In this document: one piece after another, positions 1-15,873 of the stretch
Layout: each line of letters begins with the position of its first letter
How positions within the stretch are numbered: the first letter of the stretch is position 1
Assembly: GCA_001777575.1 (NCBI GenBank)
Contig: MFEL01000018.1
Span: 8,264 to 72,263 of the forward strand
Direction of reading: 5' to 3'
Source: Candidatus Doudnabacteria bacterium RIFCSPHIGHO2_01_FULL_46_24
GTDB taxonomy: Bacteria > Patescibacteriota > Doudnabacteria > UBA920 > O2-02-FULL-48-8
Length of the DNA stretch: 64,000 nucleotides
Made by a program: the position numbers and the translations under genes
Notes under the pieces: generated by a model
Told to the model about the DNA's origin: nothing
The model's database searches: none
Seen by the model: the letters and a program-made list of their open reading frames with translations, nothing else

Positions 1-1
1 T

Positions 2-466
2 GACGTCAGCAAAAATATTTCCCCCGATAATATCTATTCGCTCTCACTGGAGCCGCAAGGGGACCTGATCTGTCAGGGGATCATAGAGGACTACGTCGCC
101 CGGGCCTACGTCATCCAGCCGTGCGAAGGCAAAACCTACCAAGACATCCACGCGTTTTTATCGGATGCGTTGGCGGCCGGCAGACTTAATAAAGAAAAAG
201 CCGCCATCGAAATCCAAAATTCGACCGGCAAGCCCTATGCCTTGGACAGCCTGCAAACCATCATTGATACCGCCTACAGCGCCAAAGTCACCAGCTTCAA
301 AAGTAAAACCCCTTATGAGCGCACGATTCTCTACGACAATTCCAACGGCAAATTTCCCCAAACTTTAGATTACTTGAAGAATAACTTCAATTTCACCCTC
401 GCCGACATCCCTTACGCCAATTCCAGCGCTGATTTCGTCATCATCCTCGGCAAAGACGCATTGTAA
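2..466 (+). CDS. hypothetical protein, 3' portion (reading frame open from window edge)
   Basis: Frame 2 has no stop from position 2 to 466, so the track's M170 ORF is the tail of a longer gene; no recognisable motif. Confidence 0.35.
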   Translation, partial: DVSKNISPDNIYSLSLEPQGDLICQGIIEDYVARAYVIQPCEGKTYQDIHAFLSDALAAGRLNKEKAAIEIQNSTGKPYALDSLQTIIDTAYSAKVTSFKSKTPYERTILYDNSNGKFPQTLDYLKNNFNFTLADIPYANSSADFVIILGKDAL

Positions 467-540
467 GAGTAAAACGTAAAGAGAAAAACGAAAAACAACA
501 GCTCAAAACTAAAAACGTTTTTACATTTCGCTTTGTTATT

Positions 541-573
541 TTAATCTTTTCTCTTTAATCTTTAATCTCCTCT
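541..573. repeat. CTTTAATCTT / AAGATTAAAG-type short repeat block upstream of der
   Basis: ttaatcttttctctttaatctttaatctcc read directly; same 10-12-mer recurs at 20375-20413, 46486-46556, 61571-61606, 61959-61989. Confidence 0.5.
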
Positions 574-1896
574 ATGAGAATTCCCATTATCGCCATCATC
601 GGCCTGCCTAATGTCGGCAAATCCACTTTTTTCAACAAAGTCTTGGGCCTGAAGAAGGCCTTGATTTATCCCGAGGCCGGCACGACCCGCGACCGGCATT
701 TTGGGCTGACGTCCTGGAACGATCTGGCTTTCTATTTGGTGGATACCGCCGGCCTAGCGCGCCCCGGCTCTGACCTGGAGCGGAACATCCAGAAACAAAC
801 GGCCATCGCAGTTGCAGAAGCTGATCTGATTTTATTCATGGTTGACGGCAAGACCTCGCCGGGAAACCAGGATTTTGCTGCGGCTAAAAATCTCATCCGT
901 ACAAAAAAACCCGCCGTGCTCGCGGCTAATAAAATTGACGCGCGCAATGCCAAAATCGAAAGTTTGGCTTCGGAATACGTCAAGCTGGGCTTGGGCCAGC
1001 CGTTTATGATTTCTTCAATCAACGGTTCCGGCATCGGCGACCTTTTGGACTCTATTGTGGAAAAACTTAATTCGCAATTCGCAATTCGCAATTCGAAAAT
1101 TACGGATTACGGATTACGGATTGCCTTTGTCGGCAAGCCCAATGTCGGCAAATCGTCGCTGGTCAATGCTTTGTTGAAACAAGATCGCCTGATTGTCCAC
1201 GAAACCGCCGGCACCACCCGCTCGGCCGTGGATATTCCGTTCGAATATGAAGGTCAAAAATTCATCCTGATTGACACGGCCGGCATCAAAAAAAAGTGGA
1301 AGCAGGACGCGGACGTGGCAGCGGCAGCCGCTTTCCAATCCATCCGCGTCATCAGCTCAACTGAAGTCGCCCTGTTCGTGCTGGATGCCGCAAGCGACAT
1401 GACGTTCCAGGATCAGGCCATTGCCGAAGAAATCCTGGAGCAAAAAAAACCGGCCGTGATTGTGCTCAATAAAATTGACCTTTTGGACCAAGCGCAGCAG
1501 GACAGGCTTTTGGATACCTTGCCTGATTACTTGCCGCAAATGTGGTTTGTGCCCGTGCTATTTTCGTCTGCCAAAACTTCCCGGGGCTTGGATCTTTTGT
1601 TAAAATTCGCCAAGAAGGCTTTCTCGTCCGCGAGTCGGGAAATTGACCAGACAGAATTAGACCATTTTTTGGATAAAATGACCGAAGAAAACATGCCGGG
1701 TAAAATGGAAGACCAGCGCGCGCCGAAATTTTATAATCTCAAGCAGATTGCCACTAACCCGCCGGTCTTCAAACTGACCGTCAACTTCCCAGCGGCAATA
1801 GCCACCGCGTGGAAAAAATGGTTCGAAAAGCAGTTCCGCTTAAAATTCGGATTCGAAGGCAGTCCGATAATGATCCGCTATATCAGGAAAGCTTGA
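574..1896 (+). CDS. der: ribosome-associated GTPase Der (EngA), two GTPase domains plus KH-like C-terminus
   Basis: Two P-loops [12 protein letters not shown] and GKPNVGKSSLVN, DTAG and NKID motifs, 440 aa. Confidence 0.92.
   Translation: MRIPIIAIIGLPNVGKSTFFNKVLGLKKALIYPEAGTTRDRHFGLTSWNDLAFYLVDTAGLARPGSDLERNIQKQTAIAVAEADLILFMVDGKTSPGNQDFAAAKNLIRTKKPAVLAANKIDARNAKIESLASEYVKLGLGQPFMISSINGSGIGDLLDSIVEKLNSQFAIRNSKITDYGLRIAFVGKPNVGKSSLVNALLKQDRLIVHETAGTTRSAVDIPFEYEGQKFILIDTAGIKKKWKQDADVAAAAAFQSIRVISSTEVALFVLDAASDMTFQDQAIAEEILEQKKPAVIVLNKIDLLDQAQQDRLLDTLPDYLPQMWFVPVLFSSAKTSRGLDLLLKFAKKAFSSASREIDQTELDHFLDKMTEENMPGKMEDQRAPKFYNLKQIATNPPVFKLTVNFPAAIATAWKKWFEKQFRLKFGFEGSPIMIRYIRKA
1069..1119. repeat. 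tandem heptamer array (AATTCGC)x4 then (ATTACGG)x3, in frame in the der inter-domain linker
   Basis: Read directly; encodes NSQFAIRNSKITDYGLR; same heptamers recur in uvrC, the glycerate kinase gene and intergenic 40178-40232. Confidence 0.7.
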
Positions 1897-1952
1897 CAGA
1901 CCAAAATAACTAAATGTATAATTAGAATAATTAAACTATAGAGTTCAAAAAT

Positions 1953-2222
1953 ATGCCTAATGTTATTTCTGCCCTTACGGCGCGCAACAAATTCGGCCAA
2001 ATCCTAAAACAGGTTGAAAAAGACCGCCGATCTTTTGTCGTGGAAAAACGCGGCTCACCCAAAGCTGTAATTTTAAGCATCATGGATTATCTCAAGTCCA
2101 GAGCTCCCGAACCTGAAATACTAAGAGTAATTGGAGAAGAATCAAAACGCAATAAGACCAGTCGCATAAGCATGAAGCGAATCAATGCCATAATCACAGA
2201 AGTCAGGAGATCCAAAAAATAG
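1953..2222 (+). CDS. Phd/YefM-family type II antitoxin
   Basis: ISALTARNKFGQILKQVEKDRRSFVVEKRGSPKAVILSIMDY matches the Phd/YefM N-terminal pattern; stop overlaps start of downstream PIN gene. Confidence 0.6.
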   Translation: MPNVISALTARNKFGQILKQVEKDRRSFVVEKRGSPKAVILSIMDYLKSRAPEPEILRVIGEESKRNKTSRISMKRINAIITEVRRSKK

Positions 2223-2224
2223 CC

Positions 2225-2650
2225 GTGTTGCCGCTGCGACTGGTAATTGACACGAATATTTTAATTTCCGGCTTGCTCAAACCTGAGGGTTTGGAACATG
2301 CTATTTTATTTTTTAGTCTCACTCCTCCGGCAACATGGTTTATTTCCTCGCAGGTTCTGGATGAGTACCAAGAGGTTTCAAGCCGGTCAGAATTAAGAAT
2401 CAAACCCAAAAGGCGCAGAGAACTCTTTGCGCTTATTCATTCTCGAACAATCACGATCGAGCCGGATATTAAAATCAATTTTCTTATTGATCCAAAAGAC
2501 GACAAATTCTTAGAATGCGCCGAAGCGGCCAGGGCTGATTATCTGATCTCCGGCAACCTCAAGCATTTCCCTAAATTTTGGAAAACCACCAAGATCATCT
2601 CCGCTCGCGAGTTTATTGAAGGCGTAGTCCTACATTTAGATACAAAATAA
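2225..2650 (+). CDS. PIN-domain (VapC-like) toxin
   Basis: N-terminal LVIDTNILISGLL PIN signature; GTG start 2 nt after antitoxin stop. Confidence 0.65.
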   Translation: MLPLRLVIDTNILISGLLKPEGLEHAILFFSLTPPATWFISSQVLDEYQEVSSRSELRIKPKRRRELFALIHSRTITIEPDIKINFLIDPKDDKFLECAEAARADYLISGNLKHFPKFWKTTKIISAREFIEGVVLHLDTK

Positions 2651-2671
2651 ATTATAGTATAGAGATAACTC

Positions 2672-2920
2672 ATGAGAATAAAATCTTCAAGCAAAATCCG
2701 CAAATTGACGCGCGCCGGCCAGACCGGATCGACCTCAGTCGTCATTCCGGCTGAGATTATCCGCGCACTGGGCTGGCGGCAGAAGCAAAGAGTTCTGGTC
2801 AAAAAAATTTCTCGCGCTATCATCATCCGCGACGCGATGACTAAGCATAAAAAAATAAAGCATAAAATTATGAACCAATACACTTTTTTGACGGAAAAGT
2901 CAAGGGTCAGTATAATTTAG
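2672..2920 (+). CDS. small AbrB/MazE/SpoVT-type (swapped-hairpin) DNA-binding protein
   Basis: SVVIPAEIIRALGW motif, 82 aa; no partner toxin seen. Confidence 0.4.
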   Translation: MRIKSSSKIRKLTRAGQTGSTSVVIPAEIIRALGWRQKQRVLVKKISRAIIIRDAMTKHKKIKHKIMNQYTFLTEKSRVSII

Positions 2921-2958
2921 GAATAAGTAAATAGTATTACTCCTTACTAATTACTACT

Positions 2959-3504
2959 ATGAGCTATCTCATCATAGGCCTTGGCAACCCGGGCAAGCAA
3001 TACAAAAACACGCGGCATAACCTCGGCTTCCGCGTATTGGATCTGCTCGCTGATGGAGAAAACTGGCAAGACAAACATGACTCGAAGTTTATCAAGCTTA
3101 ATGATATTATCCTGGCCAAACCGCAGACATTCATGAATAAATCCGGCGAGGCTGTGAAAGAAATATTGAAATATTACCCAGCCGCGGAAATGATTGTAAT
3201 TCATGATGACTTGGATTTGCCTTTTGGCTCAATTAAAGTCCAAAAAAATATATCGTCTGCAGGACATAACGGGGTACAATCAATCATTGATGAATTAGGA
3301 ACTCAAAACTTTGTTCGGGTCAGGCTAGGCATTGATATGCCTGAAGCAAGAGGGCGGATTCCTGGTGATGTCTATGTTTTACAAAATTTTTCCGGGCTAG
3401 AAGAGGAAATTATAAAACAACAACTTCTCCCGGCAGCGGTCAAAGCTATTGAGACTATCCAAACTCAAGATTTTGAAACGGCTCAGTCACGATTTAATGG
3501 ATAG
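2959..3504 (+). CDS. pth: peptidyl-tRNA hydrolase
   Basis: MSYLIIGLGNPGKQY...HNLGF signature, 181 aa. Confidence 0.92.
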   Translation: MSYLIIGLGNPGKQYKNTRHNLGFRVLDLLADGENWQDKHDSKFIKLNDIILAKPQTFMNKSGEAVKEILKYYPAAEMIVIHDDLDLPFGSIKVQKNISSAGHNGVQSIIDELGTQNFVRVRLGIDMPEARGRIPGDVYVLQNFSGLEEEIIKQQLLPAAVKAIETIQTQDFETAQSRFNG

Positions 3505-3537
3505 TTCGTATTTCGTAGAATTTCGTAGTTCGTAGAA
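3504..3537. repeat. tandem TTCGTAG-type heptamer array directly after the pth stop
   Basis: tagttcgtatttcgtagaatttcgtagttcgtag read directly. Confidence 0.6.
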
Positions 3538-3710
3538 GGACCGCTTTGCAAGAATCAGGATTCAGGGATCCTAAAAAAACTCGCCGGCGACTGCGACGAC
3601 GAGGGTTGGCCTTGCTGGGACAAGGCCATGAAAGCAGCTTGTTCGCGCGGGCGCGCGGACTATTCTGCTCTTGCCCGTGCTGGGTAACGGGCGGGGTGGG
3701 AACGGGGAAA

Positions 3711-3986
3711 TCAGTCCCCGCCGAACTCAAGGGCCAGCAGCGCAAAGCGGATATCCACTTCTTCAGGGCTCAACCCCGCGTGTTTGCAGGCCATGAGCTC
3801 TTTGAAGTAGAGGTCCAGCTCCTGCTCGGCCATGTGCAGCAGGTCGTGAATCCGACTTGCCCGCATGGCCAGCTGTTGCTGGCATCGTTCTTTGCTGCAC
3901 TGGCTACTCACGCGGCACAGAGCGCCGCGCGCGTTCACTTCCACTACATGGAGCGGAAGTGTTCGACCCAGACTACCGTGTGGCAT
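3711..3986 (-). CDS. hypothetical protein in GC-rich segment (start uncertain)
   Basis: Long minus ORF with GGAGGAG just upstream of the ATG at 3986; GC-rich DNA gives ORFs in all six frames so support is weak. Confidence 0.25.
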   Translation of the reverse strand: MPHGSLGRTLPLHVVEVNARGALCRVSSQCSKERCQQQLAMRASRIHDLLHMAEQELDLYFKELMACKHAGLSPEEVDIRFALLALEFGGD

Positions 3987-4053
3987 GGCTCCTCCGACGG
4001 CGACTGACGTTGACATGCCGCGAGCCCGCGGCAGGGTTGGCGCCAGAGCGCCC

Positions 4054-4236
4054 TTACGAATCTTCCCTCCTTTCGTGCGAGACCCGTTCTGAGGCTCGCA
4101 TAAAAACCATGGCGGCCACGGCACTTAGCCCGAGCAGTGCCGTAAAAAACGCGGCGATGCCGCCGGCCAAGCCATAGGCCACTCCAGCCAACATTACTAC
4201 GGCCAGAAGCAGCCAAACGCTTAGGCGCTTAGGCAT
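4054..4236 (-). CDS. small hydrophobic membrane protein (60 aa)
   Basis: AGGAGG 9 nt upstream of the ATG at 4236; MPKRLSVWLLLAVVMLAGVAYGLAGG hydrophobic core; the track's TTG start at 4272 is less likely. Confidence 0.45.
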   Translation of the reverse strand: MPKRLSVWLLLAVVMLAGVAYGLAGGIAAFFTALLGLSAVAAMVFMRASERVSHERREDS

Positions 4237-4453
4237 ATGGAACTTTCCTCCTTCCTCATGAGATGCGTTCAACCCTACTTACGAGCGCCAGGATCAAACG
4301 GAAAACCGTTTGGGCCTGAACTTATGGCTACTTGCACGCAATAGGAGGGATGCTGCATGCTTTCACCGCATCGCAAGTAGGATAGAAAACACCTGCTGTG
4401 CTATATTTTATAGGAAACAACATAGGATAGCAAAAATGCCAGAAAATGTCAAC

Positions 4454-4528
4454 CCCGTTAGAAACATGCTGTTTCAGGCGCTTTAAATTAAAAATTAAAC
4501 TGACATGTCGCACGAAGTTTCTAACGGG
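4454..4528. promoter_or_regulatory. inverted-repeat element copy A (CCCGTTAGAAAC ... GTTTCTAACGGG, 51-nt AT-rich spacer) spanning the dprA start
   Basis: Perfect 12-bp arms read directly; dprA ATG at 4505 lies in the spacer; related copies at 32627-32728 and 60101-60209. Confidence 0.6.
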
Positions 4529-5608
4529 ATCAATACCGAGAATAAAGTTTACGGCAATGCCCTCAATTCAATAGAAGAACTCGGGCCAGTCAGTTTGCTC
4601 AAACTGCTTAAGTTTTTCGGCAACTTCCAGAATGCCTGGCAAGCGGGCGTAACTGATCTGGCCAAAGCAGGCCTCGACCAAAAAAAGATTGATGCCATTC
4701 TAGCAAAACATCCAAGCCTGAAGCCGGAGCAATTGTGGCAGGAAACCCAAAGACTGGGCCTTGAGGCACTGCTTCTGGGAGAAAAAGATTATCCTAAACT
4801 TCTGGCCGAAATCCCCTCGCCGCCGCCGATCCTTTATGTCCGAGGAAACAAAAAGATTTTGAATGACAATCTGCTGGCGGTGGTGGGCAGCCGCAAAATG
4901 ACCGGCTACGGCCGGCGCACAGTAGAAGATCTCATTCCCCAGCTCCTAAACGCCGGCCTGGATGTGGTTTCGGGCCTGGCCTTCGGCGTAGATGCCTGCT
5001 CTTTGCAGACAACACTTTCTGCCGGCAGTGCACCCATTGCGGTACTTGCTTCCCCGCTTGACAACTCAAGCATTTCACCGAGAATCAATTACAATTTGGC
5101 CCAAAAAATCGTTCAGCAGGGTTGTATGATATCCGAATACGCTTTGGGATCTCAAGTCTACAAAACCAATTTTCCCCAGCGCAACCGGATCATTGCCGGC
5201 CTGAGCTTGGGAACGCTCGTAATTGAAGCCGACGAAAAAAGTGGCAGTCTGATTACCGCTAATTACGCGCTTGATTTCAACCGCGAGGTGTTTGCCGTTC
5301 CCGGCCCCATCTTTTCCGATGTCAGCCGCGGCACCAACGCCCTGATCAAAAAAGGAGCGGTTTTGGTGTCTTCAGCTGCGGACATTATCCAAGCGTTGAA
5401 CCTCGACGTGACCTTGCAGATGGAGCTGGATGAAAATTACCACGATGAAACCGGAATTCTGGATTTGCTTTCCGAGCCCAAACACATTGATGAGCTGATC
5501 CGGCAGCTAAAGCTGGACGCGCCCACGGTCAGCACGAACTTAACCATGCTGGAACTCAAAGGCCGGATCAAACATGTAGGCGGGGGCACTTATGCCAAGA
5601 TCCGTTAA
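4505..5608 (+). CDS. dprA: DNA processing protein DprA (Smf)
   Basis: Rossmann-like core LLAVVGSRKMTGYGRR...GLAFGVDACS, 367 aa. Confidence 0.88.
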   Translation: MSHEVSNGINTENKVYGNALNSIEELGPVSLLKLLKFFGNFQNAWQAGVTDLAKAGLDQKKIDAILAKHPSLKPEQLWQETQRLGLEALLLGEKDYPKLLAEIPSPPPILYVRGNKKILNDNLLAVVGSRKMTGYGRRTVEDLIPQLLNAGLDVVSGLAFGVDACSLQTTLSAGSAPIAVLASPLDNSSISPRINYNLAQKIVQQGCMISEYALGSQVYKTNFPQRNRIIAGLSLGTLVIEADEKSGSLITANYALDFNREVFAVPGPIFSDVSRGTNALIKKGAVLVSSAADIIQALNLDVTLQMELDENYHDETGILDLLSEPKHIDELIRQLKLDAPTVSTNLTMLELKGRIKHVGGGTYAKIR

Positions 5609-6656
5609 GCTTATTCTGCTTATTGTCGCCGCTATCCTTATTGTTATCGTCTTGCTAACAACAAAACGGGCGATAGAGCCAGGCGACTATCAACCATCAA
5701 CTATTAACTATCAACCACAAAGCGTCACCCTCTTCTTCGCCGGCGACATTATGCTCTCGCGCAACGTCCATGACCGGATGGCGAAAGCTGGTGATTTTGC
5801 GCTGCCGTTTAACCACGTGGTTAGGCAAGTGGTTTCCGCTAATCTAAGTTTTGCCAATCTGGAATCGCCGTTTAACGACCAAGGGCCGCACTTTGTGCCC
5901 AATAGTTTAGTCTTCAACGCTGACTCAAAAAGTGTCGCGGGTTTAGTCGCCGCGGGCTTTGACATCCTCTCCACGGCCAACAATCATGCTTTTGACCAGG
6001 GCCAAAGAGGCCTTGAGTTTACGCGGGACCTGCTTGAGGCTCATGACAAAGCTCATGACATCCTGGCGGTCGGAACCGGAGAGGGTTGCCATCAGGGGAA
6101 AATCATAGAAAAAAGCGGAATCAAATTCGGCTTTCTGGCCTACTCTTACGCGGCTTACAATGACGGCGGCAAACAGTCTGATCCTTTGGTCTGCAACTGG
6201 AATGATTCCGCCCAAACTGCCGAAGATATCAAACTGTTAAAAAACAAAGCCAACTTCGTGACCGTGTCTTTCCATGCCGGCACGGAATATAAGCGCCAGC
6301 CGGATGAAAAAAATGTCGCTTTAGCCCATGCCGCGACCGATGCCGGCGCCGATCTGCTCATCGGCCACCACCCCCATTGGATCCAAACCATCGAAGAATA
6401 CAAGGGCAAATATATTTTTTACTCACTCGGCAACTTTATCTTTGATCAGATGTGGAGCCAGGAGACAAGGGAAGGATTAACGATGACGATGACAATAACC
6501 ATGACCGACCAAAAACCCGAGATCAAAAAAATCGAGCTTATGCCTGTGGTTATTGACGATTACTGCTGTCCAAGATGGGCGAATTCGTCCGAAACTGCGT
6601 CGATTTTAAAAAAGATAAACTTGACAAGCAACATTTTAGTGGATAACAATGATTGA
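5592..6656 (+). CDS. CapA/PGA-biosynthesis-family metallophosphatase with N-terminal TM anchor
   Basis: FAGDIMLSRNV, GHHPHWIQ and GNFIFDQ motifs typical of the CapA family. Confidence 0.7.
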   Translation: MPRSVKLILLIVAAILIVIVLLTTKRAIEPGDYQPSTINYQPQSVTLFFAGDIMLSRNVHDRMAKAGDFALPFNHVVRQVVSANLSFANLESPFNDQGPHFVPNSLVFNADSKSVAGLVAAGFDILSTANNHAFDQGQRGLEFTRDLLEAHDKAHDILAVGTGEGCHQGKIIEKSGIKFGFLAYSYAAYNDGGKQSDPLVCNWNDSAQTAEDIKLLKNKANFVTVSFHAGTEYKRQPDEKNVALAHAATDAGADLLIGHHPHWIQTIEEYKGKYIFYSLGNFIFDQMWSQETREGLTMTMTITMTDQKPEIKKIELMPVVIDDYCCPRWANSSETASILKKINLTSNILVDNND

Positions 6657-6796
6657 GTTAAATCCTAAGCACGAAGCACTAAATTCTAAACAATATCTAA
6701 ATTCAAAGGCTTAAATGTTCAAAACTGTTTTGAATTTAAAATTTCTGTCATTTGAATTTGTTTCGGATTTCGATATTAGGATTTCGAATTTATTTT

Positions 6797-9076
6797 ATGA
6801 ATAAGTCCCTAGTAATCGTAGAAAGCCCTACCAAAGCTAAAACCATTTCACGCTTTCTAAACAACCAATACGAAGTGGCCGCGTCTTTTGGCCATATCCG
6901 CGATTTGCCGAGCAGTAAAATGGGCGTGGACATTGAGCATGATTTTGAGCCGACTTACGTCATTCCGCCCAAGGCCAAAAAGAAAGTCGCGGAACTGAAA
7001 AGCTTGGCCAAAAACGCGGACGAGATTATCCTCGCCACTGACGAGGACCGCGAAGGCGAAGCCATCGCCTGGCATCTCGTGCAAGCCCTTGGATTAAAAA
7101 ACAGTAAACAGAAAACAGTAAACAGAATTGCCTTTCACGAGATTACCAAAACGGCCATTGAGGAGGCGCTGAAAAATCCCCGCGAGCTAGATTTGCACCT
7201 GGTGGACGCGCAACAAGCCAGGCGCGTGCTGGACCGGCTGGTCGGCTACGAACTCTCGCCCTTCCTTTGGAAAAAAGTCAAACGCGGACTTTCCGCCGGC
7301 CGGGTTCAATCCGTGGCTGTGCGGCTGATTGTGGAACGCGAGCAAGAAATCCAAAAATTCAAGCCGCAGGAATACTGGAGCATTGTCGGGACTTTCAATA
7401 AAGATTCCAATTTTGCAGGCAAACTTGCCAAAATCGATGGCAAGACTTTGGACAAGCTGGCTATCAAAAACGAAGTCGGGGCAAAAAAAATCGTGGCGGA
7501 TTTGCGCAACCGCCCAGCCGAAGTCGTGGAAGTGGCCAAAAAAGAAGTCCGCCGCAACCCGGCCGCGCCCTTCACCACCTCCACTCTGCAGCAGGAAGCT
7601 GCCAGGAAACTCGGATTTTCCGCCAAGCAAACCATGATGTATGCCCAACAGCTTTATGAAGGCGTGGAAATCGGCGATCAGGAAGCCACCGGCTTGATTA
7701 CCTACATGCGCACGGATTCAGTCAACCTTTCGGAGTTCGCGCTCAATTCCGCCAAGGAAACCATTGCCGCCCGCTATGGCCAGGATTATGTCTTAGATAA
7801 TCCTCGTCGTTTTGCGACTAAGTCGAAAAATGCCCAGGAAGCCCACGAAGCCATCCGGCCCACGGATTTTTTGCGCGATCCAGATTCAATCAAAAATTAT
7901 TTGGACCGAAATCAACATCGACTTTACGATCTAATCTGGAAACGCGCTATCGCCACGCAAATGCCGGAAGCGGTTTTTGACGCCACCAGCGTTGACACGG
8001 AAATTATCGGAGCCCCCGACGCAAAGGTCGGGGCAGGCAAAAAATATATTTTCCGCTCCACCGGCCAGGTCATCAAATTCGACGGCTTTATGAAAGTTTA
8101 TCTCGAAGGCACGGACGAGGAGGAAACCAACGGCGAAGAGGAGGGGTTGTTGCCGGAACTGAAAAAAGGCGACCAGCCCAAAGTTATAAAAATTATTCCC
8201 AACCAGCACTTCACCCAACCGCCGCCGCGCTACACCGATGCCAGCCTGATCAAAGCGCTGGAAGAGCAAGGCATTGGCCGGCCTTCAACCTACGCGCCGA
8301 CCATTACCACCATTCAGGAACGCGACTACGTGAATAAAATCGACAAAAAATTCCATCCCACGGAAATGGGCTTCATCGTCAATGACATTCTGGTTGAGCA
8401 TTTTCCCAAAGTCGTGGATCTGCAGTTCACGGCCAAAATGGAAGAAAACTTAGACGAAATCGCCAGCGGCGGCAAAGACTGGGTGCCCGTGATCCGGGAA
8501 TTCTACGGCCCGTTCCACGAAAACTTGAAAGCCAAAGAAAAAGCCGTGGAAAAGCACGTGGAAAAATTAGGCGAGAAGTGCCCGGAATGTGGTAAAGATT
8601 TAGTGCTTAAATTCGGCCGGTTCGGCAAATTCATCGCCTGCAGCAATTATCCGGAATGCAAATACACGCGCCCCATGCCGGAAGATCAAAAGATGATTGA
8701 CGAAAACAAGGGTGAGATCTGCGAAAAGTGCGGCAAGCCCATGGCGGTGAGGTTCGGCAAGTTCGGCTCGTTTTTGGGCTGCACCGGCTATCCGGAATGC
8801 AAAAACATCAAAAAAATCCAAAAAGGCACGGGCGTGGCCTGCCCCAAATGCGGCGAAGGCGAACTTGTAGAGCGGCGCGGCAAGCGCGGCCCGTTCTATT
8901 CCTGCTCCAAATATCCCCAGTGCAAATTTTTGCTGCCGACCAAGCCCACGGGCGAAAAATGCCCCAAGTGCATGAGCCTGCTAATTTACGCCAAAGGCGG
9001 CACAGTCAAATGCTCGAGCAAGGAGTGTGATTTCACCAAAGAAGTTCAAGCAGAAAATCACCCTGAGCGAGCGTAG
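6797..9076 (+). CDS. topA: DNA topoisomerase I with four C-terminal zinc-ribbon modules
   Basis: Toprim start MNKSLVIVESPTKAKTI (track start 6752 is a spurious upstream extension); EITK box; repeated CPxCG...C ribbons. Confidence 0.92.
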   Translation: MNKSLVIVESPTKAKTISRFLNNQYEVAASFGHIRDLPSSKMGVDIEHDFEPTYVIPPKAKKKVAELKSLAKNADEIILATDEDREGEAIAWHLVQALGLKNSKQKTVNRIAFHEITKTAIEEALKNPRELDLHLVDAQQARRVLDRLVGYELSPFLWKKVKRGLSAGRVQSVAVRLIVEREQEIQKFKPQEYWSIVGTFNKDSNFAGKLAKIDGKTLDKLAIKNEVGAKKIVADLRNRPAEVVEVAKKEVRRNPAAPFTTSTLQQEAARKLGFSAKQTMMYAQQLYEGVEIGDQEATGLITYMRTDSVNLSEFALNSAKETIAARYGQDYVLDNPRRFATKSKNAQEAHEAIRPTDFLRDPDSIKNYLDRNQHRLYDLIWKRAIATQMPEAVFDATSVDTEIIGAPDAKVGAGKKYIFRSTGQVIKFDGFMKVYLEGTDEEETNGEEEGLLPELKKGDQPKVIKIIPNQHFTQPPPRYTDASLIKALEEQGIGRPSTYAPTITTIQERDYVNKIDKKFHPTEMGFIVNDILVEHFPKVVDLQFTAKMEENLDEIASGGKDWVPVIREFYGPFHENLKAKEKAVEKHVEKLGEKCPECGKDLVLKFGRFGKFIACSNYPECKYTRPMPEDQKMIDENKGEICEKCGKPMAVRFGKFGSFLGCTGYPECKNIKKIQKGTGVACPKCGEGELVERRGKRGPFYSCSKYPQCKFLLPTKPTGEKCPKCMSLLIYAKGGTVKCSSKECDFTKEVQAENHPERA
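7098..7127. repeat. tandem AACAGTA/AACAGAA heptamer array in frame in topA
   Basis: aaacagtaaacagaaaacagtaaacagaa; same heptamer on the coding strand of rluB at 13202-13232. Confidence 0.6.
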
Positions 9077-9126
9077 CGAGTCGAACAACGGGTAATTTCG
9101 AGAAAAAAGCCGCAGCCTCACCTCAA

Positions 9127-9160
9127 TAAAAAATGCGCCAGACACCTGGCGCATTTTTTT
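9127..9160. terminator. bidirectional rho-independent terminator between convergent topA and brnA
   Basis: A6-ATGCGCCAG-acac-CTGGCGCAT-T7 read directly. Confidence 0.65.
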
Positions 9161-9167
9161 GTGTTGC

Positions 9168-9437
9168 TTATTTCTTCGCAACTCCTTTGGCGATATACTG
9201 CTTCATCAAAGATTGATAAGGCACGTCTAATTCATTAGCTTTTATTTTCACACGGGCCACGATATGGGATGGAATGCGCAGAGAAATAGATTGGGAAGTG
9301 GGCTTAAGATTTGGAAACAAGGGACCAATCATGGCTTTGGATAAATCAAAATATTCGGTAGAATCATGGGTATCCCAAAACTCCCGTTCTTCGTCTTCGT
9401 TCTTAAATTTAGGCAGCTTTTTTATATGTCTCTTCAT
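9168..9437 (-). CDS. brnA: BrnA-family antitoxin (ribbon-helix-helix), copy 1
   Basis: KKLPKFKNEDEEREFWDTHDSTEY ... VPYQSLMKQYIAKG, the typical BrnA pattern. Confidence 0.7.
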   Translation of the reverse strand: MKRHIKKLPKFKNEDEEREFWDTHDSTEYFDLSKAMIGPLFPNLKPTSQSISLRIPSHIVARVKIKANELDVPYQSLMKQYIAKGVAKK

Positions 9438-9717
9438 AAGTTTTCCTCTCTTTTTTATTCGCCGGGCGCGCAGATATTATTCTGATTCGCCGGGTTCTAA
9501 TTGTAAAAGCTACAAATAATAGTTTGCCTGCTTGAGTCTGGCCATACATGCCAAATCGCTTTTCGGTTTGGCTATGCCTCTGGTCTGGGAAAACTATATA
9601 AAAATTGAAAAATGATTCCTCGGTTTCCAGCTGAGTAATTCCATGTTTCTCTAAACTTTTAGCCTGATTGCCTTCATCCCACTCAAACCCTTCTGATTGA
9701 CTTAAATCTAGCCACAT
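9409..9717 (-). CDS. brnT: BrnT-family toxin (DUF497), copy 1
   Basis: FEWDEGNQAKSLEKHGIT ... IRIISARPANKKERKTYEE; start placed at M of MWLDLSQ because the track ORF to 9909 runs through an implausible hydrophobic leader. Confidence 0.65.
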   Translation of the reverse strand: MWLDLSQSEGFEWDEGNQAKSLEKHGITQLETEESFFNFYIVFPDQRHSQTEKRFGMYGQTQAGKLLFVAFTIRTRRIRIISARPANKKERKTYEETYKKAA

Positions 9718-9862
9718 AGACACAGTGTATATGGGAAACTCTACACTGTCAAGAGTATAATTAATACGCCACCCACCTATCATGATGGTTGTCAAATTTA
9801 CGTCCACGCTTGCGTATACGCAAATTACATAATTAATTACGTAATTAACACAACTGCCACGG

Positions 9863-9891
9863 TTGCCATGTTTGAAACCCAAGGCTATAAT
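9863..9891 (+). promoter_or_regulatory. sigma70-type promoter TTGCCA-17-TATAAT upstream of the 9919 ORF and glycerate kinase
   Basis: Hexamers and 17-nt spacer read directly. Confidence 0.45.
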
Positions 9892-9918
9892 GACCTTAAT
9901 TAATCTCAAAAAAATTAT

Positions 9919-10101
9919 ATGGCTTTAGAAACCGGGTACGGCCGCGAAGAACTCAAGAGCAGGCTTCAGGCGTTGGAGCAGGAAATCGCAAGGATCGAGG
10001 CCGGCAATAATCCTGATAAAAAGGATTTGGATGCCCTGCACGCAGAGTACGAGCAGCTCCAAACTCAATTGAATCAAAACGACCTAAGGGAAGCCGCTTG
10101 A
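9919..10101 (+). CDS. small coiled-coil hypothetical protein
   Basis: 60 aa, charged and helical; followed by a weak hairpin. Confidence 0.35.
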   Translation: MALETGYGREELKSRLQALEQEIARIEAGNNPDKKDLDALHAEYEQLQTQLNQNDLREAA

Positions 10102-10119
10102 AAGGGCGGTTTTTTCCGT

Positions 10120-11382
10120 ATGCAATCAAAATGGTTCAAAAATTATGATCAGATTGCCACGAGCAAACAGCGGCAAGATTTGCTGGCCATTGCGGCGGCA
10201 GGTTTGGATGCGATCGATACGGAAAGCGTAATAAAAAATTATCTAAAAATTACGGATTACGAATTACGGATTAAAAATCAAACCTTTGACCTTAAAAAAT
10301 TCAAAAACATCAAAGTCATTGGGTTTGGCAAGGTTTCCTGCGCGGCGGCTGTGGCTTTGGAGCAAGCGCTTAAGGACAAAATCTCGGAAGGCATCGCGCT
10401 TGGTATTGAACCTATCTCCTGCGAAGTCATCCAGACTTACGGCGGCACCCATCCCCAGCCTTCCGAGCACAATGTTGAAATTTCCGGGCAAATTATGGAG
10501 TTGGCAAAAAATGCGACTGAAAACGACCTGGTCATCGTTGTGGTTTCCGGCGGCGGCTCGGCCCTGCTTTGCTACCCGCAAAACGAATGCGACCAGGGGC
10601 AAATTCTCTACCACCAATTTCTCAAGGGCGGAGGAACCATCGAGGAACTAAACACGGTTCGCAAGCATATTTCGCAACTCAAAGGCGGCGGATTGGCCAA
10701 ACTGCTTTATCCCGCCACAGTTATTGGCTTGATTTTTTCCGACATCCCGGGCGATGATTATTCGGAGGTCGCTTCTGGTCCGACTTTTTTTGACCCGACG
10801 ACAGTTGCCGATGCGGAACGGATCATCAAAAAATACGGTTTAAGCCGCTTTCAGCTTAACGAAACTCCCAAGGAGCAAAAATATTTCGAACAAGTCACCA
10901 ACATCCCTTTGGTGGCCAACAGCGACGCTTTGGAAGCCATGGCTGCCCAAAGCAAAGCTTTGGGCTATTCGCCTGCCATATTGTCCAATGAAATGTATGA
11001 CGAAGCGCCCATGCTGCTTACCAAAATGCGGGCAGCGCTGGCCAAAAATTCCCTGGTTTTGGCCGGGGGCGAGCCCAGGATGTTCGTCAGAGACGGATCC
11101 GCCTCTGGCGGGCGCAATCTTTATGTGAGCTTGCGCGCGGCCACGCAAATCCGAGCTGATGAATGCTTCCTGGCTCTGGCCTCGGATGGCTTGGACAATT
11201 CCGACGCCGCCGGCGCCATTGTGGACAAACAAACCCTAGACAAAATAAAAACCGCCAAGCTTGATGTCAAAGGGCATCTTCGCCACTTTGACGGCTATAA
11301 CTTTTTTAAGCAGCTTGACGAGCTCATCTTCACCGGACCCACACAAGCCAATGTCTCGGATTTATTTATTCTGCTGAAATAA
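10120..11382 (+). CDS. glycerate 2-kinase (MOFRL family)
   Basis: VVVSGGGSALL and LKGGGTIEELNTVRKHISQLKGGGL motifs. Confidence 0.8.
   Translation: MQSKWFKNYDQIATSKQRQDLLAIAAAGLDAIDTESVIKNYLKITDYELRIKNQTFDLKKFKNIKVIGFGKVSCAAAVALEQALKDKISEGIALGIEPISCEVIQTYGGTHPQPSEHNVEISGQIMELAKNATENDLVIVVVSGGGSALLCYPQNECDQGQILYHQFLKGGGTIEELNTVRKHISQLKGGGLAKLLYPATVIGLIFSDIPGDDYSEVASGPTFFDPTTVADAERIIKKYGLSRFQLNETPKEQKYFEQVTNIPLVANSDALEAMAAQSKALGYSPAILSNEMYDEAPMLLTKMRAALAKNSLVLAGGEPRMFVRDGSASGGRNLYVSLRAATQIRADECFLALASDGLDNSDAAGAIVDKQTLDKIKTAKLDVKGHLRHFDGYNFFKQLDELIFTGPTQANVSDLFILLK
10249..10272. repeat. tandem ATTACGG/ATTACGA heptamer array in frame in the glycerate kinase gene
   Basis: attacggattacgaattacggatt encodes KITDYELRI. 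Confidence 0.6.
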
Positions 11383-11435
11383 ATATCAGCGTGACAACCA
11401 TTGAGCGATCGCATAGTGTTTGTCAAAAAATCTGA

Positions 11436-12740
11436 TTAATCATTCTTCATAAAAATTTCGTTTTCGAAAAGCCAATAGCGCAGGGCGGTAAAAAAGGGCA
11501 GCACGGACAGAAAATACCGCAAGTCAGCGGTCTTGCGGATGAGCCAGCCAAACAGGCCGTGGATGATCAGGTTGGGCGTGTACAAAATCGCGTACTTGCC
11601 GGACACGGGAATAACAAACCTCACCGGTCCGGAATGATACGGCAACAAGGGGCGTCCCTGCACCAAGCGATAAATGTTTTTGGCCGCGTGCCTGCCTTGA
11701 TGAATCGCTTCCTGGGCGGTTTGCGGCAGCGGCTTTTTGGTTTGGGGATCCAGGATGCAGGCGTCGTCGCCGGCCACAAAGACGTTCGGAAATTTTTTCA
11801 AATTCAAAAATTCCGTCGCGGCAGTGCGGTCTTTTTTATCGCGCTCCAAATCTTCCAAAACCGGCAGGCGGCAGGACCGCACTCCGCCGGTCCAGATCAG
11901 TAAATCGCAGGCAACCTGCTCTTTGTTGTTGAGTGTCAAAAAATCTTTTTCGGCATGAGTCAGCAAAGTCGAAAACCGGCCTTCTATCCCCAACCCTGCC
12001 AGCCTGGCTGCCACCAACTTGGAAACTTTCTCGGACAATCCCGGCAGATAATTAATTGCGCCCTCCACAATCATAATTTTGAAATTCTCCGGCTTTTTCC
12101 CGTGAGCCTTGCACTCGTGCTTAATTAAATTGCGCAACTCGCCGGCGAATTCCACTCCGGCAAACCCTCCGCCGCCGATAATTATCTGCCCTGAATCTTT
12201 CTTGCTAATTATATCCTCAATCCGGTTTCTTATCATGACCGCGTCTTCCAAGCTCTTGAGCGTAAATCCATACTTGTCCAATCCCGGAATGCCGTAGAAA
12301 TCGGCGATGCTGCCCAGCGCAATCAACAGATAATCAAAATACACCACGCGCGAATCAGTCATGATCTGGCCGTTTCCAAGATCAACTTTCTCGACAAATG
12401 CCTTAAACACCTTGACTGATCGCTTGCGAAAAATGTCCCCAAGCGGGATAGTCACGGTTTTCTTAACTTTCCTGGCGGCAATCTGCCGATGCTCGGTGGT
12501 GGCCGCCTCATACAGCGCAGCATGGTAGAGATGATAGTCATGCCGGTCAATCAAGACAATTTCGTATTCTGGATTGTCCCCGATATATTCGCTCAATGCC
12601 AAACTCGCCGACACGCCGGCAAAGCCGCCGCCTAAAATTACCACTCGTTTTTTTTCCTGATTTTGTTTCAATTTTGCTTTTCCAATCTTATTTATTATAT
12701 CACAAAATCTGATTTTTTTCAAGGAAAATATGCTTGCCAA
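11436..12740 (-). CDS. type II NADH dehydrogenase-like FAD/NAD(P)-dependent oxidoreductase
   Basis: Two GxGxxG Rossmann motifs VVILGGGFAG and IIIGGGGFAGVEFAGEL; hydrophobic C-terminal tail. Confidence 0.7.
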   Translation of the reverse strand: MASIFSLKKIRFCDIINKIGKAKLKQNQEKKRVVILGGGFAGVSASLALSEYIGDNPEYEIVLIDRHDYHLYHAALYEAATTEHRQIAARKVKKTVTIPLGDIFRKRSVKVFKAFVEKVDLGNGQIMTDSRVVYFDYLLIALGSIADFYGIPGLDKYGFTLKSLEDAVMIRNRIEDIISKKDSGQIIIGGGGFAGVEFAGELRNLIKHECKAHGKKPENFKIMIVEGAINYLPGLSEKVSKLVAARLAGLGIEGRFSTLLTHAEKDFLTLNNKEQVACDLLIWTGGVRSCRLPVLEDLERDKKDRTAATEFLNLKKFPNVFVAGDDACILDPQTKKPLPQTAQEAIHQGRHAAKNIYRLVQGRPLLPYHSGPVRFVIPVSGKYAILYTPNLIIHGLFGWLIRKTADLRYFLSVLPFFTALRYWLFENEIFMKND

Positions 12741-13383
12741 GAGGTAAATTACCTAAGCGTAATTTGCCGATCCTGATACGCTTAAGATTCCGGACGGTGT
12801 AGCCGAAAACTGCAAACATTTTTCGTATCTGCCGCTTCCAGCCTTCGTGAATGGTTAAATAAACTGTCTGGCCATCAACTCGAGCCTTGGCCGGCGCGGT
12901 CCTGCGTCCATCAAGCACCACCCCGGTTTTGATTTTCTCTAATCTCGAATTACTAATCTCTTTATCCAGGATCACTTCATATTCTTTTTCGTGCTCAGCG
13001 GAGGGATGAGTCAGGCTTTGTGTCAACTCCCCATCATTGGTCAAAAGCAGCAAGCCTTCGGTGTTGAAATCCAGCCGGCCTATTGGCCAGACTTTGTTAC
13101 GCAATTCCGCGGGCAGCAAATCATAAACCGTCCGCCGTTTCTGCGGATCATGCCGCGTGGTCATGTATCGCTTGGGCTTGTTCAAGGCAAGATATATCAG
13201 ACTGCTTACTGTTATCTGTTTACTGTTTACTTCAACTCTGTCTCTTTCGGGATCAATCTTAGTCCCCAAGACACGAACGACCTGGCCATTGACTTTGACT
13301 TTCCCCGCCACAATCAACTCTTCCGCGTGTCGGCGTGACGCCGCACCTGCTCGGGAAATGTATTTTTGAAGTCGCTCAAGCAT
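12700..13383 (-). CDS. rluB: rRNA pseudouridine synthase, RluB/RsuA family
   Basis: S4 domain MLERLQKYISRAGAASRR plus catalytic GRLDFNTEGLLLLTNDG. Confidence 0.85.
   Translation of the reverse strand: MLERLQKYISRAGAASRRHAEELIVAGKVKVNGQVVRVLGTKIDPERDRVEVNSKQITVSSLIYLALNKPKRYMTTRHDPQKRRTVYDLLPAELRNKVWPIGRLDFNTEGLLLLTNDGELTQSLTHPSAEHEKEYEVILDKEISNSRLEKIKTGVVLDGRRTAPAKARVDGQTVYLTIHEGWKRQIRKMFAVFGYTVRNLKRIRIGKLRLGNLPLGKHIFLEKNQIL
13202..13232. repeat. tandem AACAGTA-type heptamer array on the coding (minus) strand of rluB
   Basis: Reverse complement of ctgcttactgttatctgtttactgtttactt. Confidence 0.55.
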
Positions 13384-13397
13384 GCTATGATTATACT

Positions 13398-13886
13398 ATG
13401 TTTCAACGATTTTGGGAGTGGTATCAACGCCACTACCTGCTCAACCTCTCCATCGCGACTTTCTTGTTCCTATTCCAACTATTCCATCTCTACTGGCTGT
13501 TTACTGACGTGGTCTTGATAAAAATAACCGGGCAGAGTTATTTTGCCTTCCCGAACATTTGGGGGATGATTTCAACTTTCCTTGATTATTCTGAAATCCC
13601 GGCCATAATTTCGACAAGTGTTCTGTACATACACTTGCTTCGACAAAAATGGGCCGCCAAAAATTTCCTTTACCTCTTATTCATCAACATCCAATGGATC
13701 CACATCCTTTGGATTACGGACGAGATAATCGTTGAACGGTTTGCCACTCACATCGAATTTTTTCATTGGCCGCTGGTTGCGGCCTGGCTGGCCATCGCGA
13801 TTGATTATTTCGAACTGCCGGTCATTTATGACACAGCCAAACGGCTTGTGAGGGAAATTAAAAAAAACAAAAAAATACCGAACTGA
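13398..13886 (+). CDS. hypothetical polytopic membrane protein
   Basis: Start at ATG 13398 (track start 13335 overlaps rluB); several hydrophobic helices. Confidence 0.4.
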   Translation: MFQRFWEWYQRHYLLNLSIATFLFLFQLFHLYWLFTDVVLIKITGQSYFAFPNIWGMISTFLDYSEIPAIISTSVLYIHLLRQKWAAKNFLYLLFINIQWIHILWITDEIIVERFATHIEFFHWPLVAAWLAIAIDYFELPVIYDTAKRLVREIKKNKKIPN

Positions 13887-13897
13887 CTGGCAGTCGG

Positions 13898-14375
13898 TCA
13901 ATAGTAGAACAGGTAGTAACGACGCAGGCCGCGTATGTGTGCCTGATGGAGGATTTTGCCACCCGCCCAGACGGTCACGCGCAGCGGGTAGTAGCGGTAC
14001 GGCAAGATCTTCCAGAGCCGCCGCGATTCGATCTCGCAGTTGGCTTCAACTACCTGCTGGAACCACCCGATACAGACGGGGATAACAAAGTAGTGCTCCC
14101 CGTTAAAGCGGTGGACGATTGGGCCGCAGACAAACTGCGATCCGAGCAGGCGCAGGAGCTCACTATAAATGAGCTCTAAGGCGAATCGGTCCTTGCGGGT
14201 AACAAGCCCTCGCAGAGCTTTCTCAAGCTCTTGGTCCAAGGGCCGAAATATGGCCTCCCACAGCCTCCGGAGCCTGTTGCCACGCGGGGTGTGCGTGTTG
14301 GCGGGCCCTGGCTACGGCGCTGATTACGCGGAATATTTCTGACGGCTGCCGTTCGGCGATGTCGTCAGTCATCAT
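13898..14375 (-). pseudogene. frameshifted gene of unknown function in a GC-rich segment next to tRNA-Lys
   Basis: ORF-A 14223-14375 (GAAGGAGG then ATGATG) stops 17 nt inside ORF-B 13898-14239, which stays open upstream in the +1 frame; about 63% GC. Confidence 0.4.
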
Positions 14376-14442
14376 TGTCAGGCCTCCTTCTCGTTCACTT
14401 ACAAGTTAAAAATACCAAAATCCCGAAACGCCGTCAAAGCTA

Positions 14443-14471
14443 TTGAAAAAAACACAAAAAATCTGTATAAT
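14443..14471 (+). promoter_or_regulatory. consensus sigma70 promoter TTGAAA-17-TATAAT for tRNA-Lys
   Basis: The -10 ends 13 nt before the tRNA 5' end. Confidence 0.6.
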
Positions 14472-14484
14472 GTCTGAGTTACGA

Positions 14485-14561: not shown

Positions 14562-14568
14562 AAGAATA

Positions 14569-15050: not shown

Positions 15051-15067
15051 TGAGGAGGAACAATCTG

Positions 15068-15859: not shown

Positions 15860-15873
15860 CTTGTTCCATCTTT

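Follow-up and report, generated by a model that had tools for sequence, protein, structure and literature searches.

Tandem heptanucleotide arrays in linkers, loops and spacers of a Doudnabacteria genome segment

The DNA considered here, a stretch of 64 kb with 49% GC that is called the window in what follows, belongs to Candidatus Doudnabacteria, a lineage of the candidate phyla radiation (CPR), and comes from a metagenome-assembled genome from groundwater of the Rifle aquifer. The same sequence is present in the assemblies RIFCSPHIGHO2_01_FULL_46_24, _12_FULL_48_11 and GCA_001779995.1 and in a 123-kb contig from JGI. Its genes include der, pth, dprA, topA, rluB, dnaK, uvrC, ssb and trxB, and within and between them lie about 19 short tandem arrays of 7-nt units, belonging to five or so unit families and typically 3-5 units long. 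I propose that these arrays are probably of the type known as short tandemly repeated repetitive (STRR) sequences, a class of heptanucleotide repeat driven by mutation and filtered by selection. In related lineages the same permissive sites have been overwritten again and again.

Heptamer arrays in genes and spacers

The arrays stand out first by their period. Exact runs of at least three copies number four at period 7 and zero at all other periods within 4-15. If arrays are counted as 14-nt self-matches with at most two mismatches, the window has 13 at period 7, where Markov-3 sequences lead one to expect 0.23 (an excess of about 50-fold), and none at periods 4, 5, 8, 10, 11 or 13. Of the 55 rows that Tandem Repeats Finder returns for the window, roughly one in three has period 7 or 14, and the excess of period 7 over other periods holds in the relatives as well. 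These counts dispose of the idea that heptamer arrays occur only as often as chance would place them.

Family 1, AATYCGN with its reverse complement ATTRCGG, occupies six loci (1069, 1099, 3502-like, 10249, 32206 and 40178/40207); since ATTACGG is nearly the reverse complement of AATYCGT, its two units are one family in two orientations. The AAACAGN family has three loci (7098, 13201, 18553), as does TTTAATC (540, 20377, 46528), while TATCAAC has two (5689, 60225) and TAATTAG has one (60619). The original prediction, that a few heptamer families are spread over coding and intergenic DNA, is thus borne out. All the arrays it named exist where it placed them, to within 1-3 nt, though its list overlooked eight (465, 540, 5689, 18553, 20377, 21842, 46528 and 60619).

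Membership in the bacterial class of long heptanucleotide simple sequence repeats (SSRs) of STRR type calls for head-to-tail 7-nt units in at least 2-3 copies, and these are found, together with the excess of period 7, the same units at many unlinked loci and a predominantly intergenic placement. Eleven arrays fall within the roughly 6.2 kb that is non-coding and eight within the 57.8 kb or so that is coding, a density per kb some 13-fold higher outside genes, on crude gene calls by which the window is about 90% coding.

The eight of 19 arrays that are coding lie in frame in der, a PGA_cap gene, topA, a DUF4147/MOFRL kinase gene, rluB, dnaK and uvrC. As judged by Pfam boundaries and alignments of orthologues, they are always in linkers, loops or tails. 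This had been claimed for linkers and loops, to which may be added the tail of DnaK and the region ahead of the PGA_cap domain. The claim that three repeats make 21 nt, and so keep the frame, stands as arithmetic but not as an account of how the arrays fit their genes: arrays of 24-33 nt substitute for native sequence and leave the gene, when compared with its orthologues, unchanged in length or longer by 3, 9 or about 24 nt, and there is no insertion of 21-nt blocks. In topA, a 30-nt array stands in place of 21 native nucleotides, leaving the gene three codons (9 nt) longer than in three relatives, and the tail of DnaK is eight codons (about 24 nt) longer than in the relative L137.

What does follow from 3 x 7 = 21 is that translation of an array visits each of the three reading frames in turn and yields a cyclic heptapeptide fixed by the unit and its orientation. 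The peptides of the arrays accordingly recur: der and uvrC share IRNSQF, der and the DUF4147 gene share ITDY(G/E)LRI, and NSKQxT is common to topA, rluB and DnaK. It had been thought that the coding copies encode unrelated peptides, and in this the prediction was mistaken. Selection on the content of arrays is visible within genes, where only stop-free, hydrophilic combinations of unit and orientation are present. All three coding arrays of the AAACAG family lie in the sense orientation that encodes the hydrophilic NSKQxT. AATTCGT, whose repetition contains a stop, runs uninterrupted only in the intergenic copy at 40207-40240; in uvrC it occurs only in registers without an in-frame TAA, and a C variant in the third AATTCGY unit averts TAA.

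The intergenic arrays cluster at the ends of genes. Five stop 5-25 nt before starts (those of der, dprA, dnaK, ssb and the trpS/tyrS region), and two, at pth and trxB, start on the stop codon and contain TAG. The unit family of the array at the end of trxB is also present in the relatives L011 and L137. Table 1 gives the position and setting of each array.

Table 1. Heptamer arrays of the window in order of position
Position	Strand	Unit and copies	Setting
465-516		AAAAACG/AAAAACT, degenerate, A-rich	Fills the lytR-der spacer; rows in Tandem Repeats Finder
540-568		TTTAATC x4	Ends 5 nt ahead of the der ATG (574)
1069-1095	+	AATTCGC x3.9, perfect	In frame, der linker GD1-GD2, peptide NSQFAIRNS; left hairpin arm
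1099-1122	+	ATTACGG x3.4, perfect	In frame, der, peptide ITDYGLRI; right hairpin arm
3502-3537	+	TTCGTAG-type	Begins on the pth stop codon (TAG); stops in all three frames
4485-4499		AAATTAA x2.1, weak	Just 5' of the dprA ATG (4505)
5689-5717	+	ATCAACC/CTATCAA	In frame, PGA_cap aa 33-42, ahead of the Pfam domain
7098-7127	+	AAACAGT/AAACAGA	In frame, topA Toprim loop, peptide KNSKQKTVNR
10249-10273	+	ATTACGG/ATTACGA	In frame, DUF4147/MOFRL (glycerate-kinase-like) gene, aa 44-51, peptide ITDYELRI
13201-13231	-	ACTGTTT on the + strand, AAACAGT in sense	rluB, linker between S4 and pseudouridine-synthase domains, peptide VNSKQITV
18553-18583	-	GAAACAG family (sense)	C-terminal tail of DnaK
20377-20412	-	GATTAAA (sense) x5	Last grpE codons and entire grpE-dnaK spacer, to the dnaK ribosome-binding region
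21842-21857		TATAGAT x2.3	Intergenic
32206-32238	+	AATCCGT/AATTCGT/AATTCGC	In frame, variable uvrC loop, peptide QSVIRNSQFVI
40178-40240	+	ATTRCGG arm, GCC loop, AATTCGT arm, then T tract	After RNase J, before trpS/tyrS
46528-46550		CTTAAAT/CTTTAAT	rpsF-ssb spacer; ends 6 nt ahead of the ssb ATG
60225-60255	-	GTTGATA x4 on the minus strand (TATCAAC x4.4)	Upstream of the DUF3105 gene
60619-60649	-	TAATTAG-type	Begins at the trxB stop codon

The same sites in related lineages

The comparisons that follow set the 64 kb available from the host against stretches of up to 21 kb from relatives (L007-L011, L133, L136 and L137); the nearest distinct lineage is about 70% identical to the window at the level of the Der protein. 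In der, the two arrays of the linker between the GTPase domains (aa 166-183) make up a 57-nt cassette, (AATYCGN)4-AA-(ATTNCGG)3, that is 84-96% identical among non-sister lineages in genes that are otherwise 61-65% identical. Between the window and L007, the patch agrees at 55 of 57 nucleotides and the remaining gene at 64%, and at third codon positions the agreement is 18/19 in the patch versus 44% in the rest of the gene (P = 4.5e-6). The L007 protein (P0081) ranks 118th of 119 by identity to the window outside the linker. The mirror image is provided by L008, which agrees with its relative L133 at only 35% in the patch versus 87% elsewhere in the gene, and whose protein (P0033), the linker apart, shares 96% identity with six Der proteins, all of them lacking the cassette. 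The der tree is a neighbour-joining tree that carries no support values. The uvrC array tends to the same incongruence.

This can hardly be ancestral retention, which is rejected because the carriers are not nearest relatives and the near-identical relatives of P0033 lack the cassette. Since the carriers are unrelated and patch and gene disagree, the cassette must have been acquired more than once, or have moved; it has not been conserved as protein. The third positions uphold the proposal that the phenomenon lies at the level of nucleotides. Protein-level conservation in distant homologues had been named as grounds for abandoning that proposal, and distant orthologues of Der do have the same peptide, but conservation in der is at the level of DNA and phylogenetically patchy, so a nucleotide-level origin is not refuted.

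The edges of the cassette are in register with native codons, on the right GGA TTA CGN ATT, where the final units encode the conserved G-L-R-I of der, and on the left (C/A)AA TTC G. The register suggests anchoring by microhomology. Growth in situ from native seeds is therefore plausible for the window, whose codons are in register, but it fails for L008: the native sequence of its relatives, GGG CTC AAA ATA ACT, offers no seed for the ATTNCGG arm, which excludes purely local growth in that lineage.

Other lineages have put other units in the same places. Der is 438-441 aa long in most of its 120 best orthologues, with or without an array, and the linker varies in sequence only. It contains AATTCGC and ATTACGG in the window, L007 and L008, CTCAAAC in L009, ACCTATC in L011, and no array in L010. 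The N-terminus of PGA_cap has three different units in three genomes (that of the window, CTCAAAC in L009 and AACCTAT in L011), and within L009 and within L011 the unit in PGA_cap is the unit in der. The uvrC loop has peptides of heptamer type in many orthologues, and L136 and L137 share TCC GTA ATT CGY AAT TCG CAA with the window. Permissive protein sites, then, have been struck repeatedly across lineages, with the same unit or with different ones. A second hot spot of uvrC lies about 90 nt upstream of the first: L136 has GAATCGG x4 there (11346-11378), L137 has TTCCCCC x3.5 with a 16-codon insertion (11400-11430), and the window has an N-rich, irregular segment (aa 521-533).

Within the lineage of the window no such change is seen. 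Six assemblies (from ENA, JGI and NCBI) that carry an identical Der protein are 99.98-100% identical over window positions 1-11896, with 0-2 single-nucleotide differences per 11.9 kb, and are essentially one strain. Since they are independent and agree, the arrays are not artefacts of assembly. All six are identical at seven arrays, and those members of protein clusters at 90% identity or more that cover an array keep its peptide and its length, with point substitutions elsewhere. The variation in repeat number by slipped-strand mispairing that the original prediction looked for among strains is thus not seen at the consensus level, in comparisons of low power; because the assemblies represent about one strain, the constancy of the arrays argues only weakly against hypermutability. 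Apparent differences in gene length between assemblies, upstream of the window, come from scaffold gaps and calls of start codons and not from changes in arrays.

Origin and possible roles of the arrays

How might such a distribution come about? On the account I favour, the Doudnabacteria lineage would produce heptamer arrays at a high rate, as do heterocystous cyanobacteria and several other phyla. Arrays would arise and turn over by errors of replication or repair in steps of 7 nt, the error being either slippage or template switching, primed by microhomology, onto an existing array of that family at another place in the genome. Purifying selection would then clear copies from everywhere but spacers, linkers, loops and tails. 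Of the intergenic copies, a minority would have gained function or would happen to provide it, the candidates being the terminator after RNase J, a -35 box, the stops in three frames after pth and trxB, and the spacers before der, dnaK, ssb and dprA. Among the open reading frames (ORFs) of the window that were scanned, none contains a transposase, reverse transcriptase or integrase domain.

Several observations weigh against this account. Stepwise slippage by 7 nt in either direction would shift the frame of the essential genes der, topA and uvrC, so that single-step events or templated patches would be required. Slippage from a local seed cannot explain L008. The sharing of units among unlinked loci would seem to need transfer between loci or between lineages, and so would a near-identical 57-nt cassette in non-sister lineages. 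The lack of length polymorphism is not what one expects of DNA prone to slippage, albeit in assemblies that amount to about one strain. Finally, L008 keeps the der hairpin with changes on both arms, which could reflect selection on structure. Simple slippage being insufficient, the observed pattern constrains the mechanism.

Transfer is at the heart of the first alternative, that the arrays are the footprint of a dedicated, sequence-templated process. The arrays, above all the der patch, would be mobile mini-cassettes compatible with protein, or written by a templated process, or else the product of short-patch gene conversion between co-resident Doudnabacteria after transformation. Candidates for the agent would be a reverse transcriptase, a telomerase-like enzyme or primase-polymerase that copies a 7-nt template over and over at breaks, or an enzyme of the HUH type specific for hairpins. 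Such a process would account for the disagreement between patch and gene phylogenies at der and uvrC, for the same architecture and register in three non-sister lineages, for the replacement of native sequence in a recipient without a seed, and for the recurrence of one unit at unlinked loci of a genome. The patch of L008 also brings I-A (ATT GCT) where its relatives have I-T. The window includes the transformation gene dprA, and one set of metagenome assemblies (sample prefix ANAN16-1) is the source of L008 and L133 as well as of the window organism.

Set against this is, first, the absence of mobility domains just noted, and with it the absence of terminal inverted repeats, target duplications or common flanks beyond the heptamers. 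Unit families of many kinds coexist, and most arrays have a single orientation and no hairpin. Exchange of the RecA type is unlikely between der flanks that are 61-65% identical, and raised identity stops at the array, conserved motifs aside. The sole Y1 transposase seen, in L136, is accompanied by GC-rich palindromes of another kind, and a scan of metagenomes for the centre of the der hairpin gave one match only, in an unrelated, GC-rich organism with an intergenic heptamer hairpin of its own, a match that does not bear on mobility. I consider short-patch gene conversion and a dedicated templated process, whether as mobile cassette or as repair enzyme that reiterates seven nucleotides, unlikely even when taken together. 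Were the templated process real, it would be one that overwrites permissive loops and spacers across Doudnabacteria and possibly across cyanobacteria, Bacteroidota and other phyla, and the 57-nt hairpin cassette of der would be its clearest trace.

A second alternative makes the arrays selected cis-regulatory elements: terminators, promoters, spacers for initiation, barriers of stops or sites for binding proteins (cold-shock or OB-fold proteins, for example), and, inside genes, mRNA hairpins that pause ribosomes between domains. Individual arrays do look the part. The inverted pair after RNase J forms a hairpin with an AT-rich stem of 27 pairs (22 in the main stem; -30.6 kcal/mol, z -6.9). A terminator scan agrees, finding a stem of at least 20 pairs, five of them G-C, followed by TTTTTTAATTTT, 119 nt past the stop codon of RNase J, so that the pair fits the make-up of an intrinsic terminator and is predicted to be one. 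The array upstream of the DUF3105 gene supplies TTGATA, 17 nt and then TATAAT, with the start of the gene about 120 nt downstream; it would contribute the -35 box of a predicted sigma-70 promoter, and in this one case the association of arrays with promoters that had been suggested is found, the promoter being a candidate read from sequence. The five arrays shortly before starts and the two on stops recall the TAACTGA arrays of Beggiatoaceae (PMC4679880). The der hairpin (1069-1122; -20.9 kcal/mol, z -5.0) is retained in L007 and in the doubly altered L008, and units like those of family 1 form a long hairpin in the leader of dnaJ, the 3' half of which is common to another leader.

Yet arrays of the same family lie both with and against the direction of transcription, in widely differing contexts. 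When six arrays were folded and compared with shuffled controls, only the der pair and the pair after RNase J did better; the glxK, uvrC, pth and topA arrays showed no fold beyond the controls, and for this reason hairpin function is rejected as a general explanation. An Rfam scan of the window gave no match at any array, and only two tRNAs at the gathering score. Close lineages lack the array or have other units at the same sites, which makes no conserved requirement apparent: there is no structure in the der linker of L009, L010 or L011, and the lytR-der spacer, built of array in the window, is absent in these three, where lytR overlaps der. Regulation by selected elements is a doubtful explanation of the arrays as a whole, somewhat more so than a templated process.

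The two leaders deserve description in their own right. Those of dnaJ (17068-17185, minus strand) and of the DUF3467 gene next to dnaK (18404-18505, minus strand) have in common a 3' half of about 60 nt, ATTCGCATAA.AT.CGCA.ATTCGTATCACAA.TTTTATG, in which units like those of family 1 are irregularly spaced. The hairpin of the dnaJ leader is strong (-37.6 kcal/mol, z -5.4) and that of the DUF3467 leader weaker (z -2.5), and neither matches Rfam; the shared half is a candidate element of heat-shock 5' untranslated regions (UTRs). Another repeat near gene starts is the 11-mer CCCGTTAGAAA, of which the window has five exact copies, where about one is expected even allowing one mismatch. They form inverted pairs 50-90 nt apart, at 4454-4464(+)/4518-4528(-), at 60103-60113(+)/60197-60207(-), and at 32629-32639(+) with a degenerate partner at about 32716-32727, that flank the start regions of dprA, the DUF3105 gene and secG. 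Twice, TTTCTAA(A)CGGG directly adjoins the ATG. The pairs may be stems of 5' UTRs or a small dispersed inverted-repeat element.

That the arrays are contingency loci, hypermutable SSRs that switch or tune expression by copy number as heptanucleotide SSRs do in the phase variation of Haemophilus hmw promoters (PMC8262952, PMC12721329), is very improbable even though several lie in promoters or 5' UTRs: the genes that bear them (der, topA, dnaK, uvrC, rluB, PGA_cap and the DUF4147 kinase gene) include no non-essential surface or restriction-modification switch gene; on/off switching is impossible where arrays lie in essential genes, since a frameshift in housekeeping genes such as der, topA, dnaK or uvrC would be lethal; and the six assemblies and the protein clusters show no polymorphism of copy number (at low power, in about one strain), the differences in gene length having other causes. 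For the coding copies phase variation is largely refuted.

A mutation-driven and selection-filtered repeat class is thus the likeliest of these readings, and the der linker, the uvrC loop and the N-terminus of PGA_cap are concrete loci where a templated or recombinational origin could be put to the test. The arrays also have a practical side: they can mislead analyses of gene trees, recombination and positive selection in CPR core genes, and they mark sites in essential proteins that tolerate insertion.

The window and its relatives have further features of note. Modules of toxin and antitoxin are dense for a small genome (1953-2920, 9409-9909, 23852-24404, 43048-43544 and 62950-63726) and comprise PhdYeFM/PIN, a MazE-like antitoxin, BrnT with a CopG-type antitoxin (23852-24404), ParE and AbiEii; a second BrnT/CopG pair, at about 9170-9880, is deduced solely from the gene calls of L001-L003. 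Three successive large ORFs of 421, 985 and 1517 aa (48337-57132, minus strand) encode probable surface or adhesion proteins. The two longer ones have FG-GAP, dockerin, He_PIG and GBS_Bsp-like domains; the 421-aa ORF matches no Pfam family and contains Gly-rich coding repeats of 18, 24 and 30 nt (48793-49041). A 119-aa protein with a four-helix bundle, like 23S_rRNA_IVP or bAvd (61599-61958, minus strand), is flanked by thioredoxin-reductase-like paralogues (60647-61570 and 61989-62945). Between der and pth, L011 (RIFCSPLOWO2_01_FULL_44-like) has a module resembling a diversity-generating retroelement (11345-14624), with an RVT_1 reverse transcriptase, a 348-aa ORF and a bAvd/IVP protein. In L010 (RIFCSPLOWO2_02_FULL_49), topA is called as two ORFs of 308 and 474 aa (14205-16552), which could be a frameshift or an error of assembly.

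Comparison with known heptanucleotide repeats

Dispersed heptanucleotide arrays have reportedly been on record since 1990, and one unit of the window is itself widespread. AATTCGY x3 matches more than 120 stretches of species-representative genomes, where an estimate from the size of the collection would allow about two by chance. The carriers include Nostoc, Anabaena, Calothrix, Chitinophaga and other Bacteroidota, and Ignavibacteria, and also Acidobacteria, Planctomycetes, Chloroflexi, Microgenomates and Shapirobacteria. Those stretches, 876 kb in all, have 354 period-7 arrays, in which 119 units can be distinguished; the other tested periods give 3-40, apart from period 14, whose 281 are the period-7 arrays detected again. 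Of 135 AATTCGY arrays, 25 lie within open frames of at least 150 codons. The breadth of the distribution means that the window is part of a general phenomenon and that the unit is not special to Doudnabacteria. Searches of the literature yielded no report that links heptamer repeats with Patescibacteria, and searches for the units as whole words gave nothing relevant.

DNA uptake sequences, the DUS of Neisseria and the USS of Pasteurellaceae, are single 9-12-mers that occur about once per kb. They lie in both orientations, form terminators as inverted pairs, settle at permissive sites in genes and spread by recombination. The arrays of the window resemble them as short motifs common to related lineages, in both orientations, with inverted pairs and permissive coding sites, but differ in being tandem and in belonging to several unrelated families. 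The hexamer core of family 1 occurs 57 times in the 64 kb where about 31 are expected, an enrichment of about two-fold that lies mostly within arrays, and the idea of an uptake sequence is rejected because the monomer is too weakly enriched.

The nearest likeness is to the STRR sequences of heterocystous cyanobacteria, whose canonical units are CCCCAGT, TTGGTCA and CAACAGT; the last is said to be the unit of STRR3 in the description of 1990. As in Calothrix, Anabaena and Nostoc, the window has short head-to-tail arrays of 7-nt units, few families per genome, many loci and mostly intergenic placement. AATTCGY x3 itself occurs in many genomes of Nostoc, Anabaena and Calothrix, and AAACAGT of the window is one base removed from CAACAGT, the unit given for STRR3. 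The differences are that the host is a CPR bacterium with a small genome, that the units are AT-rich, unlike CCCCAGT and TTGGTCA, that the arrays are short (3-5 units), and that 8 of the 19 are in-frame parts of housekeeping genes. With a host in Doudnabacteria and with different units, they are not cyanobacterial STRR sequences in the strict sense.

Heptanucleotide repeats are reported to outnumber all other long SSRs in most bacterial genomes, and slippage over the footprint of the polymerase has been proposed for them (summarised in PMC4679880 and PMC4692102); three heptanucleotides were described in Calothrix (cited in PMC4692102). Repetitive extragenic palindromes (REPs), in the inverted pairs called REPINs and mobilised by REP-associated tyrosine transposases (RAYTs) of the Y1/HUH type (PMC3116915), resemble the window at two loci, der 1069-1122 and 40178-40240, which are inverted pairs with long hairpins. 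REPs, however, are extragenic palindromes and not tandem heptamers, and most arrays of the window are not palindromic; there are just the two palindromic loci, and no Y1_Tnp domain among the ORFs scanned in these 64 kb of the genome. In L136, the interval between RNase J and trpS/tyrS, which corresponds by synteny to 40178-40240, contains a RAYT-like Y1_Tnp gene of 208 aa (16200-17030), with the GC-rich palindrome CAAGGGGAGTCCTTG..CAAGGACTCCCCTTG on both sides. As a source of the family 1 hairpin it is rejected, these palindromes being unrelated to the hairpin in sequence.

Geobacter metallireducens has 49 elements of four heptamers (GGACCGG), within and between genes, and sites with MTYCTGA x5 (PMC2700814). 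The likeness lies in a heptamer specific to the genome, in arrays of about four units, and in a function that is there only guessed at; the difference lies in units that are GC-rich and annotated as putative regulatory RNA or binding sites (PMC2700814). The recurrent replacement at orthologous sites reported here has no counterpart among the comparisons of that study. TAACTGA arrays are found ahead of start codons in marine Beggiatoaceae and in some cyanobacteria and Bacteroidetes (PMC4679880). They resemble those of the window in their 2-6 copies just before starts and in the scattered phylogenetic spread of one unit; their stop codons bar the forward orientation from genes, and translational regulation has been proposed for them (PMC4679880). 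The Beggiatoaceae have one dominant unit in 169 sets, whereas the window has several families and a more prominent occupation of coding sequence. Xanthomonas and Nostoc have arrays of GGGAATC/GGGGAYT in about four units (PMC4692102). There too, heptamers are enriched over other unit sizes, about four units are preferred, inverted pairs occur, arrays lie within 50 bp of starts or stops, and units differ between related species at the same loci (PMC4692102), but the units of the window cannot form G-quadruplex structures.

What the CPR adds to these systems comes from its many related lineages in metagenomes, which allow an unusually clean evolutionary read-out: the same loops are overwritten, their length is kept, and the units track the genome or a shared family and not the gene tree. 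The window extends to the CPR the genome-specific heptanucleotide repeats known as STRR sequences in cyanobacteria and from Geobacter, Beggiatoaceae and Xanthomonas.

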